Assembly: GCA_964016885.1 (NCBI GenBank)
Contig: OZ024744.1
Coordinates: 117,738,001 to 117,802,000 of the forward strand
Direction: 5' to 3'
Length of the DNA stretch: 64,000 nt
From: Eledone cirrhosa
Lineage: Eukaryota
Shown here in pieces: positions 4,023 through 63,729 of this stretch (position 1 is the stretch's first letter; each line of letters opens with the position of its first letter). The notes under the pieces were generated by a model. The model made no database searches, was not told the DNA's origin, and saw only the letters and a program-made list of their open reading frames with translations. A program made the position numbers and the translations under genes.

Positions 4023-4740
4023 TTGTTATATTTGGGGAGGGTCATATTTGCGTAATATTGCCAGAATTAATAACAGAACACACTCACTGTTTGGTTGGTT
4101 TTCGCTTCTCGCTGTCTTTTATATATATATATCTGCGATCTAACTTACTCGGTCCTCAATGTTGCCATTGACTGACCGGCGGTCAAAAATAATACAGATA
4201 CAATATAGACAAACACATATATATATAGTTTACATAAATCTTTCGTTGCACATCTGCAACATCGTCAGTGGTGTTATATTCATTGTTCCTCCTGTTGTGT
4301 TGTATGTCTACGCCATTTTTTTTTTTTTTGTTCAGTCTGTCTCAATGACAGACTGAACAAAAAAAAAAAAAAAAAAAAAAAAAAAAAAATGGCGTAGACA
4401 TACAACACAACAGGAGGAACAATGAATATAACACCACTGACGATGTTGCAGATGTGCAACGAAAGATTTATGTAAACTATATATATATGTGTTTGTCTAT
4501 ATTGTATCTGTATTATTTTTGACCGCCGGTCAGTCAATGGCAACATTGAGGACCGAGTAAGTTAGATCGCAGATATATATATATAAAAGACAGCGAGAAG
4601 CGAAAACCAACCAAACAGTGAGTGTGTTCTGTTATTAATTCTGGCAATATTACGCAAATATGACCCTCCCCAAATATAACAATATCTGTTTCGACACACG
4701 ATTTCATATAAAAAACCTCGCAAAACTAATTCATCGCCGC
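4023..4740 (+). mobile_element. Fold-back insert, probable solo PLE pseudo-LTR with an inverted copy
   Basis: Arms 4023-4341 and 4347-4682 are reverse complements apart from T14 versus A31, with a 5-nt loop. The right arm extends to 4740 and carries a hammerhead-like core. Confidence 0.7.
4435..4472 (+). ncRNA. Degenerate minimal hammerhead-like motif (mirror copy on the - strand in the left arm)
   Basis: CA-CTGACGA-T-GTTGCA gatg TGCAAC-GAAA-GATT-TA-TG. The core and 6-bp helix II are good. Helix III AGAUUU is self-complementary only with G.U pairs, and helix I is only 2 bp. Confidence 0.45.
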
Positions 4741-6263
4741 TATATATATATGTATATATGTATATGTATATATGTATATATATATATATATGTATATGTA
4801 TATATATATGTATATATATGTATATATATATATGTATATATATATGTATATATATGTATATATATATATATATATATATATGTATATATATGTATATATA
4901 TGTATATATATGTATATATATGTATATATATATATATATATATATGTGTGTATATGTATGTATGTATATATATGTGTGTATATGTATGTATGTATATGTA
5001 TGTATGTATATATATATATGTATGTATATGTATGTATATATATATATGTATGTATATATATGTATATATATATGTATGTATATATATGTATATATATATG
5101 TATGTATATATATGTATATATATATATGTATGTATATATATGTATATATATATATGTATGTATATATATGTATATATATATGTATGTATATTTATGTATA
5201 TATATTTATGTATGTATATATATGTATATATATTTATGTATGTATATATATGTATGTATATATATGTATGTATATATATGTATGTATATATATGTATATA
5301 TATATATGTATGTATATATATGTATATATGTATATATATATATATATATGTATGTATATATATGTATATATATATATGTATATATATATATATATATATA
5401 TAGGTATATATATATATGTATATATATATATGTATATATATATAGGTATATATATATATGTATATATATATATGTATATATATATATGTATATATATATA
5501 TGTATATATATATGTATATATATATATATGTATATATATATATATGTATATATATATATGTATATATATATATGTATATATATATATATATATATATATG
5601 TATATATATATATATGTATATATATGTATATATATATATGTATATATATATATATGTATATATATGTATATATATATATATGTATATATATGTATATATA
5701 TATATATGTATATATATATATATATATGTATATATGTATATATATGTATATATATATGTATATATATATATATGTATATATATATATATATATGTATATA
5801 TGTATATATATGTATATATATATGTATATATATATATATATGTATATATATATATATATGTATATATAGATGTATATATATATGTATATATATATATATA
5901 TATATAGATGTATATATAGATGTGTATATATATATATGTATATATATATATATATATAGATGTATATATATATGTATATATATATGTATATATATATATA
6001 TATATATATATAGATGTATATATATATGTATATATATATGTATATATATATGTATATATATATGTATATATATATATATATATATATATATGTATATATA
6101 TATATATATATAGATGTATATATATATGTATATATATATGTATATATATATGTATATATATATGTATATATATATATATATATATATATATATATGTATA
6201 TATATATAGATGTATATATATATGTATATATATATATATATATATATATATATAGATGTATAT
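4741..6263. repeat. Degenerate (TA)n microsatellite, about 1.5 kb
   Basis: Direct reading. Confidence 0.98.
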
Positions 6264-7366
6264 ATCATCATCATCATCATCATCATTTTACGTCCGCTTT
6301 TCCCTGCTTGCAAGGGTGGGACGGGTCTTATTCAGCACAGCATCTCTCCACTCGTCACGGTCCCTCGTCATCTCCACCGTGAGCTTCAATGATCTGAGGT
6401 CTGTTCTCACCACCTCCGCCCATGTTTTTCGTGGTCTACCTCTACCACGTCTTCCTTCAACTGGCATGTCCTGGCACTTCTTCACCCATCGGTCATCCTC
6501 CATGCGCATCACATGTCCATACCACCTCAGTCTCCTCTCCCGTACACTACATTCTATCCCTCTCAGACACAGTTTCTCTCTCAACACATTTATGCTGGGT
6601 CGTTCACGCACATTTACACTGCACATCCAACGGAGCATGCTTGCCTCATTTCTCTCCAGCCGTCGCATATCTTCTGCGGTAGCTGCCCATGTCTCACTAC
6701 CATGCAGCATCGCGCTCCTCACACAGGCATCATACAACCGGCCTTTCGTACGCAGGGAGAAACCCTTCTTCGTCAACAGAGGAAGCAGCTCCCTAAACTT
6801 CTTCCAACCCGTCCTTATTCTAGATACTATGGCCTCGGAACACCCTCCTCCCATGCTAATCTGATCTCCTAGGTACCGGAAGCTATCCACCACTTCTATA
6901 GCGCCCTCTCGCATTTGAAAAATGTGTCTATCAGTGCGACTTCTACTGTCTAATTTCCCTGTACATCTACTGCATACATATTTCTCCCTACCTGTTAGTT
7001 TGCCTGCTATCCCGCTACATCTCTTGTGTACCCAGGACCTACATTGTGTGCATTTTATAGAATTTATGCCAGTTCCTTTTCTGCATATCGAACATGGCCA
7101 TTTCCCTGACGGAATCAGGGTTTTGTCCTCTTTTCTACTCATCAACACTTTTGTCTTAGCTAGATTTACTCTCAGTCCTCTTGCTTCCAACTGCTGTTTC
7201 CATAGCCGGAATTTATTCTCTAGCTCCTCTACTGATTCTGCCATAAGAGCCAGATCGTCAGCATAGAGAAGTTCCCATGGACAGCCAGTCTTAAACTCCT
7301 CTGTTATGGCTTGGAGGACTATAATGAACAAGAGCGGGCTGAGGACCGAACCCTGATGTACTCCTA
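6264..7366 (-). mobile_element. 5'-truncated RTE LINE, family A (3' 1.1 kb)
   Basis: Reverse complement of 9265-10368 with about 5 substitutions seen; [14 protein letters not shown] and PHD motifs; (ATG)n tail. Confidence 0.95.
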
Positions 7367-7565
7367 TATATGTATATATATATATATACATATATATATA
7401 TATATATATATGTATATATAGATGCATATATATATGTATATATATGTATATATAGATGTATATATATATATGTATATATAGATGTATATATAGATGTATA
7501 TATATATGTATGTATATATATATGTATATATATATATATATATATATATATGTATATATATATAT

Positions 7566-61600: not shown

Positions 61601-63272
61601 ACCAAGCTGTATCAAACATTACCTGTCCCTTGGACAACATCATATATAATATATATAGTATATATATAGTTGTGATGTCACTGGTACCAAGCTGTATCAG
61701 ATATTACCTTTCCCTTGGACAACATCATATATATAATATATATATAGTATATATATAGTTGTGATGTCACTGGTACCAAGCTGTATCAGACATTACCTTT
61801 CTCTTGGACAACATCATATATAATATATATAGTATATATATAGTTGTGATGTCACTGGTACCAAGCTGTATCAGACATTACCTTTCCCTTGGACAACATC
61901 ATATATAATATATATAGTATATATATAGTTGTGATGTCACTGGTACCAAGCTGTATCAGACATTACCTTTCCCTTGGACAACATCATATATAATATATAT
62001 AGTATATATATAGTTGTGATGTCACTGGTACCAAGCTGTATCAGACATTACCTTTCCCTTGGACAACATCATATATAATATATATAGTATATATATAGTT
62101 GTGATGTCACTGGTACCAAGCTGTATCAGACATTACCTTTCTCTTGGACAACATCATATATATAATATATATATAGTATATATATAGTTGTGATGTCACT
62201 GGTACCAAGCTGTATCAGACATTACCTTTCTCTTGGACAACATCATATATAATATATATAGTATATATATAGTTGTGACGTCACTGGTACCAAGCTGTAT
62301 CAGACATTACCTTTCCCTTGGTCAACATCATATATAATATATATAGTATATATATAGTTGTGATGTCACTGGTACCAAGCTGTATCAGACATTACCTTTC
62401 CCTTGGACAACATCATATATAATATATATAGTATATATATAGTTGTGACGTCACTGGTACCAAGCTGTATCAGACATTACCTTTCCCTTGGTCAACATCA
62501 TATATAATATATATAGTATATATATAGTTGTGATGTCACTGGTACCAAGCTGTATCAGACATTACCTTTCCCTTGGACAACATCATATATAATATATATA
62601 GTATATATATAGTTGTGATGTCACTGGTACCAAGCTGTATCAGAGATTACCTTTCTCTTGGACAACATCATATATAATATATATATAGTATATATATAGT
62701 TGTGATGTCACTGTTACCAAGCTGTATCAGACATTACCTTTCCCTTGGACAACATCATATATAATATATATAGTATATATATAGTTGTGATGTCACTGGT
62801 ACCAAGCTGTATCAGACATTACTTTTCTCTTGGACAACATCATATATAATATATATAGTATATATATAGTTGTGATGTCACTGGTACCAAGCTGTATCAG
62901 ACATTACCTTTCCCTTGGACAACATCATATATAATATATATATAGTATATATATAGTTGTGATGTCACTGGTACCAAGCTGTATCAGACATTACCTTTCC
63001 CTTGGACAACATCATATATAATATATATATAGTATATATATAGTTGTGATGTCACTGGTACCAAGCTGTATCAGACATTACCTTTCCCTTGGACAACATC
63101 ATATATAATATATATAGTATATATATAGTTGTGATGTCACTGGTACCAAGCTGTATCAGAGATTACCTTTCTCTTGGACAACATCATATATAATATATAT
63201 ATAGTATATATATAGTTGTGTTGTCACTGGTACCAAGCTGTATCAGACATTACCTGTCCCCCGGGCATCATC

Positions 63273-63411
63273 GGCAGTGTGGAGAGGGGTGACTGGTATA
63301 CATGGGTGACTGTTGGTCTTCCACAAACAACCTTGTCAGGACTTGTGCCTTGGTGGGGAACTTTCTAGGTGCAATGCCATGGTCATTGTTGACTTGAAGG
63401 GGGTCTTTACC
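63273..63411 (+). mobile_element. 3' half of the SINE that hosts the satellite
   Basis: The last unit lacks the TA spacer and continues GGCAGTGTGGAGAGGGG...GAAGGGGGTCTTTACC, matching my recollection of the continuation of this octopus SINE; followed by (TA)n. Confidence 0.7.
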
Positions 63412-63478
63412 TATATATATATATATATATATATATATATATATATATATATATATATATATATATATATATATATAT
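63412..63478. repeat. Pure (TA)n microsatellite
   Basis: Direct reading. Confidence 0.98.
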
Positions 63479-63729
63479 AAAATTGTTAAACAATATTCAA
63501 TGATTATGTCAAAGAATGAGTTTTACAGTATATTGGAAGCACTCAACGGAAATAATTTTCTGGAGTTATTAATATTAAAATATAAGTATTAATGAAATAG
63601 ATGTTCTTTTAATCAATTACATTTTATTATACATATTTCGGATGTACAACAGTACATCCTCATCAGACAAAATATAATGATACATGACATACCCTGAGAT
63701 GTTAAATGGTTAAGATTTAATCCAGGTAG
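63479..63729 (-). mobile_element. Short hammerhead-bearing insert (solo PLE pLTR-like)
   Basis: AT-rich 250 bp between TA runs; the flank TATTTTGTCTGA is shared with the 26.2 kb motif. Confidence 0.6.
63621..63673 (-). ncRNA. Minimal type I hammerhead ribozyme
   Basis: ATTTTGT-CTGATGA-GGATGTAC tgtt GTACATCC-GAAA-TATGTA-TA^-ATAAAAT; perfect 8-bp helix II and 7-bp helix I. Confidence 0.85.

Follow-up and report, generated by a model that had tools for sequence, protein, structure and literature searches.

Hammerhead ribozymes have been described in the Penelope-like elements (PLEs) of animals, and several published systems lie close to the locus examined here. Cervera and De la Pena (2014; PMC4209133) reported several hammerhead families per genome, with a palindromic helix III, pairs of copies on opposite strands and truncated copies. 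TA targeting, tails and inversions in PLEs were described by Craig et al. (2021; PMC8557442). For the anole element Poseidon, two internal priming sites bound the tail in vitro, both target strands were extended at AT-rich targets, and mostly uncut RNA served as the template (Frangieh et al. 2024; PMC11167929). We analysed 64,000 nucleotides (nt) of the Eledone cirrhosa genome (GCA_964016885.1, contig OZ024744.1, positions 117,738,001 to 117,802,000 of the forward strand; the whole stretch is called the window), in which an earlier note, made from the sequence alone, had pointed out a cluster of hammerhead families in inserts within TA tracts. All seven families are the ends of PLEs that bear open reading frames (ORFs): four are Hydra-type, two Neptune-like and one other. 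The inserts are probably the pseudo-long terminal repeat (pseudo-LTR) ends of these elements, and those short copies that begin at a fixed site are likely to be tail-primed complementary DNAs (cDNAs) that ran off a capped RNA with its hammerhead uncut. Hammerheads and palindromes were already known; the cap-like G at a fixed 5' base is a lead for which we found no printed report.

A descriptor scan for type I hammerheads (core, helix I, helix II and a self-complementary helix III) gave seven matches in 32.6 kb of non-satellite sequence and none in each of 100 block-wise dinucleotide shuffles. The matches lie at 14807-14753(-), with the self-complementary helix III ATGCGCAT; at 15346(-), 19548(-) and 21012(+), which have AGTACT in common; at 25997(-) and 26167(+), both with ATATATAT; and at 63666(-), with ATATGTAT. 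Two further motifs lie outside the descriptor and fit by inspection: ACCGGT at 14943-14972(+), with a core of the U3-A8 type reported by Cervera and De la Pena (2014; PMC4209133), and ACACGTGT at 25268-25162(-), whose helix II measures 88 nt. The hammerhead cores in the window are real, and TA tracts flank the inserts, as the earlier note had said on both counts. Its weaker candidate at 4435(+) stands in part: a motif is present at 4437(+), with a mirror copy at 4268(-) that the note does not list, but helix I has only 2 contiguous pairs in each, and their helix III is unstable even as a dimer (+0.2 kcal/mol); we regard this pair as weak hammerhead-like cores. An Rfam scan of the window retrieved no hammerhead family among its best 150 of 274 matches, and the Rfam matches were mostly microRNA models on TA tracts.

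Helix III served to name the families: A for ATGCGCAT, B for ACCGGT, C for AGTACT, D for ACACGTGT, E for ATATATAT, F for ATATGTAT and G for AGATTT. Self-complementarity, claimed earlier for all of them, is perfect in A, B, C, D and E and needs two G-U pairs in F, but is lacking in the commoner form of family G, AGAACT. The companion claim that each family has a palindrome of its own did not hold, since the families at 26167 and 63666 both carry ATATGTAT and G carries mostly AGAACT rather than AGATTT. The type I fold, palindromic helix III, U3-A8 core variant and many families per genome match the metazoan PLE hammerheads, as do opposite-strand pairs 100-700 bp apart and a majority of single copies, ascribed there to truncated elements (PMC4209133). 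The present families differ in having a helix III of 6-8 nt and a helix II of up to 88 nt, and neither 5' end mapping nor family specificity is treated in the accessible text of that paper.

Only one family had been thought to sit in a coding element. This is true within the window; elsewhere in the genome all seven lead upstream into an ORF for reverse transcriptase (RT) or endonuclease. Family C in the window has RT and GIY-YIG domains (Pfam RVT_1 and GIY-YIG) in a partial tandem with an inverted tail-less arm, and the remaining families were traced upstream in other genome copies (loci with L numbers). Upstream of family B (L113) lie a GIY-YIG domain and an RT 49.6% identical to that of C, with matches to Pfam RVT_1 and GIY-YIG. 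Family A has an 808-aa ORF between two pseudo-LTRs (L170), family D a 777-aa ORF (L242), and family E ORF pieces 49-57% identical to A (L245, L248, L250). An endonuclease C-terminus lies about 2 kb upstream of family F (L111, L112), and an endonuclease end of GIY-YIG type precedes family G in a copy bearing the window's own variant (L166); for F and G only the C-terminal part of the protein was seen. Partial tandems occur in the window element C, L170 and L242.

Translations of A, D and E contain RWK-like and DKT motifs and a CxCx5C linker, partly kept in D, and these families target TA. Together with F, which is placed by the similarity of its endonuclease end, they appear to fit the Hydra clade, for which RWK-like and DKT motifs, a CxCx5C-type linker, a single ORF of about 800 aa, a hammerhead, TA insertion, a tail and an inverted 5' copy are described (PMC8557442). 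The copy numbers here, in tens of thousands, and the 2-kb 3' untranslated region of family F differ from that clade, and fixed 5' ends are not described in the accessible text. Translations of B and C contain GxKF, DKG and a CX2-5CxxC linker (CX4CxxC), and these features, a C-terminal GIY-YIG domain and partial tandems with an inverted arm are common to them and the Neptune clade (PMC8557442). By these motifs B and C would be Neptune-like; the linker is common to Nematis too and does not separate Neptune from Nematis.

A separate ORF1 that overlaps the RT frame distinguishes B and C from Neptune as described in the accessible text of PMC8557442. Within that overlap, families B and C (window 18030-18045(-)) and a third related family conserve a slippery U-UUU-UUA heptamer in frame for a -1 shift, seen at L032, L041, L117 and L358. 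No strong fold lies downstream of it. The heptamer resembles the human immunodeficiency virus site. Our literature search, which covered few subscription papers, found no report on frameshifting in Neptune.

Pattern searches of the 3.0 Gb assembly, which count arms rather than insertions and gave 0 for reversed controls, returned 22,318 matches for A (exact 25-mer), 12,560 for B, 6,888 for C, 3,082 for D, 36,067 for E over several subfamilies and 3,601 for G, mostly AGAACT; family F had 1,586 candidates. The multiple copies that the earlier note had asked about are thus present, thousands to tens of thousands per family, and 360 kb of neighbouring DNA holds few of them. Families A, B, C, E and F have two discrete classes of 3' end, tailed and tail-less, and such a pair of fixed 3' positions is a published Penelope signature (PMC8557442).

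The 5' ends are also concentrated. We counted as short arms those that end within 300 nt of the core, and excluded loci chosen by length or score (by family, L001-L030, L111-L114, L161-L180 and L241-L260). A first search for B had favoured copies of query length and so gave an apparently fixed 5' end; those 30 loci are absent from the counts, as are the long copies that had been fetched deliberately. Short arms started within a 13-nt window in 20/35 cases for A (1.3 expected), within 9 nt in 28/47 for B (1.2 expected) and within 13 nt in 13/39 for F (1.5 expected), while 18 of the 22 5' ends of C fell between -46 and -33, seven of them exactly at -44. Counted from the first base of the core, the outer limit falls at -70 in A, -42 in B and -64 in F, in each case on an A with a C before it; in family C it falls at -44, on an A with a C after it. 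Of another 20 A loci that lacked an exact partner match, 13 end at -70, one at -76, and six continue; those ending at -70 abut TA, unique DNA, or partner arms cut anywhere. The A limit is therefore independent of the partner. Fixed ends, for which the earlier note had suggested a test, characterise roughly one in two short arms of families A, B, C and F, and the idea that short inserts are all random truncations of full PLEs does not hold, as 5' ends pile up at one base. Subfamily alleles confound a genome-wide ratio of matches across the A site (4,729 vs 7,896), and it forms no part of the evidence.

By the general initiator consensus, these limit sites may be read as initiator-like. They may also be compared with the initiator-like TCACT of rotifer pseudo-LTRs (PMC3846280).

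Among the matches listed, the base just outside the limit was G in 77/100 for A and 69/100 for B, against a background share of about 25% (21 of 84 non-C bases at other 5' ends, or 21 of 111 counting C). Junctions at 30 loci in each family were sorted by eye, and those that the partner arm could have templated were removed. Family A had 12 with non-templated G, seven with another base and 11 templated (G in 12/19 untemplated); family B had 12 with G, three with another base, seven templated and eight continuing copies (G in 12/15 untemplated); and family F had about seven with G and three with another base among untemplated junctions, with G at 10/30 overall. An extra G is known to mark capped full-length L1 insertions that were copied up to the RNA cap (PMC11702581).

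The pile-up could instead reflect a polymerase stall, or microhomology-driven fold-back, inside full-length templates rather than an RNA end. Such an origin would suit the A site, a short palindrome at which many junctions are symmetric, and the partner arm does template some of the extra Gs. However, the B site has no palindrome, unpaired arms stop at the same base, and non-templated G is in excess in three families; at a control position 17 nt inside B, only about four true junctions were found in 30 loci, one of them with G. We therefore consider stalling or fold-back quite improbable as the source of the pile-up.

At some junctions the G is present on both arms (L302/L303, L439/L440), which points to sense templates for both. 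This speaks against the account of head-to-head junctions by antisense self-priming offered for rotifer elements (PMC3846280).

The ribozyme is intact in the copies, which run across it, and no more than 213 B arms start within two bases of the cleavage site, compared with 12,560 in which the site is intact; the ribozyme would therefore have been mostly uncut when copied. A peak of B 5' ends at the cleavage site was sought among unsorted loci and not clearly found.

The run-off origin that we favour may be set out as follows. RNA polymerase II would start at an initiator-like CA that lies within the pseudo-LTR and 42-70 nt before the ribozyme core, and the capped transcript would thus begin in the upstream pseudo-LTR; an internal promoter in the Penelope pseudo-LTR, within the transcribed region, has been described for Drosophila virilis (PMC2377424). 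The endonuclease would cut both strands of a TA tract, and each cut end would prime a cDNA at one of the two tail sites. Priming in the upstream pseudo-LTR would give a product of 170-270 nt that ends at the cap, and priming in the downstream pseudo-LTR would give products that are long or truncated at random. The pair of cDNAs, one from each cut strand, would then be joined head-to-head at their far ends. The monomeric ribozyme is predicted to be inactive, cutting presumably needing a second copy or the element's protein, so the template would survive. Internal priming at two sites bounding the tail, extension of both strands and an uncut main template are as in Poseidon; that work was done in vitro on synthetic templates, and genomic run-off copies ending at the cap are not reported in its accessible text. 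Overall we lean towards the view that thousands of copies record this Penelope run-off product, both arms having been copied from sense, capped and uncut RNA, from start to tail. Our literature search, within the scope given above, found no paper on run-off, cap-ended or solo copies ending at a start site, and no report of cephalopod PLE hammerheads. In the E subfamilies and F, GGTAYGTCA is conserved about 40 nt after the fixed 5' base (L112, L245, L247) and is a candidate internal promoter element.

What was observed directly comprises the families, their ORFs, two fixed 3' ends, head-to-head arms, the 5' pile-up and the extra G. Several points weigh against the run-off reading. Where the RNA started, how it was primed and whether it had been cut are all deduced from DNA, and the 213 B arms at the cleavage site could include a real minority copied from cut RNA. 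The pile-up is weak in family D (4/14 short arms) and absent from family G (30/30 scored); in family E the subfamilies prevented a clean score, the pile-ups of F and C are spread over 10-25 nt, and the hot-spot windows were set after the data had been seen. Some extra Gs come from microhomology, and the patterns in the G test did not admit A at -2 or C at -1, which makes the count of TA-flanked junctions too low. No Pfam match was obtained for the proteins of A, D, E or G, and A, D, E, F and G were assigned by motifs and pairwise similarity.

The earlier note had inferred that the genome hosts many TA-targeting PLE or retrozyme-like mini-element families. Many TA-inserting Penelope-like families with dimer-type hammerheads are indeed present; independent or retrozyme-like units are not supported, because each insert is the end of an ORF-bearing family and its alleles are common to short and long copies. 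Non-LTR retrozymes replicating through circular RNA are similar short non-coding units with type I hammerheads and a relation to pseudo-LTRs (Cervera and de la Pena 2020, PMC7229834; Li et al. 2026 preprint), from which their derivation has been reported (10.64898/2026.07.22.740005), and the inserts resemble them in size (170-400 nt), hammerhead type and low GC. Unlike retrozymes, which are tandem repeats cut to monomers, the inserts are single or head-to-head ends of coding elements: among the first 100 matches listed per family there were no tandem units, only single copies, opposite-strand pairs or copies at ORF-length spacing. Their ends lie at the cap-like site and the tail rather than at the cleavage site, and every family has ORFs, at odds with the non-coding nature of retrozymes. 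The retrozyme reading is thereby largely refuted, and we hold it to be extremely improbable.

It is somewhat less unlikely, though still doubtful, that short copies arise by run-off and then propagate themselves as non-autonomous units mobilised in trans, in the manner of short interspersed nuclear elements. Roughly one short arm in two has both ends fixed; such arms would keep the internal promoter (inside the transcribed region, as in D. virilis; PMC2377424) and the priming sites, and rotifer pseudo-LTR sequences are enough for mobilisation in trans (PMC3846280). Short A copies are moreover enriched for the alleles of one subfamily (p 0.002-0.01, several columns). Against such spread, the small samples from A (21 short and 37 long copies), B (71 and 17) and F (19 and 12) yielded no short-only allele, and for 57% of the short arms in A and 58% of those in F there is a long copy within 1%.

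The palindromes had also been proposed to act as family-specific dimerisation keys. We weighed this in the form that they were selected so that ribozyme dimers, and perhaps also pairs of the two template RNAs, form within one family only. In a swapped dimer, helix I too would be intermolecular. Predicted in-register duplexes of A (-10.5 kcal/mol), D (-10.3), B (-8.3) and C (-4.8) compare with -0.4 or weaker for cross-pairs, so the proposal stands to the extent that no cross-pairing is predicted among A, B, C and D. Within each of these four families helix III hardly varies; because A, E and F share helix I (8-12 cross pairs), it would be the only barrier between A and E or F. Head-to-head junctions, furthermore, join arms of the same family in 149/150 cases.

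The same-family junctions can be explained without a key, since arms of the same insertion are closer to one another than to other copies in A (0.021 vs 0.069) and B (0.026 vs 0.053); F showed no difference. Any two different palindromes are orthogonal, so orthogonality alone is no sign of selection. Families E and F are predicted to be fully cross-compatible in helix I and helix III, the mixed pair (-3.2) beating the ATATGTAT self pair (-2.2), yet no E-F junction occurs among 38 E or F junctions, and both mixed junctions that were found (A-B in the window, B-C in L056) join incompatible motifs. Motifs also vary within a family, E carrying ATATATAT in 39 and ATATGTAT in 28 of 70 copies.

A survey blind to palindromes covered 1.95 Mb in loci that partly overlap. 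It distinguished 615 contexts, with 21 clusters of at least three members, one of them spurious. Helix III was a perfect palindrome in 14 clusters, needed G-U pairing in one and was non-palindromic in five. Unrelated families shared motifs: ATATATAT occurred in three clusters, two more families using it, and ATATGTAT in two, so that four families share ATATATAT/ATATGTAT; ACTAGT was present in two unrelated families, and the AGAACT of family G was common to another cluster. At least 13 more hammerhead families were seen in flanks, some with 10-nt palindromes and some with an odd-length or non-palindromic helix III. We regard selected family keys as improbable. Self-complementarity of helix III is conserved, as published, and a family code is at best partial; the palindrome may serve self-dimerisation and have drifted between families, with a partial and probably incidental specificity as the outcome. 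No report of a family-specific palindrome code was found in the literature search, with its sparse coverage of subscription papers.

In the window, the family A arm (14716..14877(-), Hydra-type, tail-less, hammerhead 14807-14753, ATGCGCAT) starts at the fixed 5' base of its family (14876), with an extra G at 14877. It is joined head-to-head with a Neptune-like family B arm (14881..15114(+), tailed, U3-A8 hammerhead 14943-14972, ACCGGT), whose 5' end has a short fold-back. This rare mixed junction (14716-15114) and one between B and a long inverted C copy (L056) suggest that one insertion event can use two different RNAs.

The full-length family C element spans 15141..19342(-), with ORF1 at 17961-19391, an RT and GIY-YIG ORF at 15727-18054, and a 3' pseudo-LTR comprising the hammerhead at 15346-15318(-) (AGTACT) and the tail. 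An upstream, 5'-truncated copy (19343..20672(-), hammerhead 19548-19520) makes the 5' pseudo-LTR of the partial tandem, and the inverted tail-less arm occupies 20697..21146(+) (hammerhead 21012-21040).

Families A and D are represented by tail-less arms that have no partner or a foreign one, E and G by head-to-head pairs, and F by a single tailed arm. The family D arm (25120..25352(-), Hydra-type, hammerhead 25268-25162 with the 88-nt helix II, ACACGTGT) includes a remnant of the opposite arm's tail (25321-25352). Direct fusion of a tail-less arm to a short opposite-arm tail remnant recurs elsewhere (L263, L265, L272, L277, L200, L203). The Hydra-type family E pair consists of a tail-less arm (25903..26073(-), hammerhead 25997-25948, ATATATAT) and a tailed arm (26092..26351(+), hammerhead 26167-26216). 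The family F arm (63482..63729(-), Hydra-type, hammerhead 63666-63628, ATATGTAT) starts one base inside the fixed 5' base of its family. Family G comprises a tail-less arm (4023..4342(-), weak hammerhead-like core 4268-4235) and a tailed arm (4348..4739(+), weak hammerhead-like core 4437-4470, helix III AGATTT, helix I of 2 bp).

Other repeats share this AT-rich setting. Elements of the long interspersed nuclear element (LINE) type, with endonuclease and RT ORFs, also lie in TA tracts (6280-10380, 11418-13760, 22500-24190 and 35101-37728), and one of them carries an inverted 1.1-kb copy of its own 3' end. A satellite of about 31 kb (31700-63300) has an 85-87 bp unit that holds a short TA stretch, with 94% matches in the part scanned, and is broken at 35101-37728 by the LINE-type ORF. 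A 376-codon open frame rich in Q, N, T and A at 28367-29497(+) is possibly a host exon.

How PLEs make inverted ends, regenerate pseudo-LTRs and use their ribozyme are questions raised in earlier work (PMC2377424, PMC3846280, PMC8557442, PMC11167929). A cap-like G at a fixed base yields exact predictions of RNA start sites and ties internal priming, as seen in vitro, to genomic copies. If the run-off reading is correct, DNA alone would suffice to map where transcription starts in four families, and the ribozyme would be off during reverse transcription in the animal. The reading would also count against the antisense-template account of head-to-head junctions, and it would provide a route for the birth of solo pseudo-LTRs and, from those, of non-autonomous elements.

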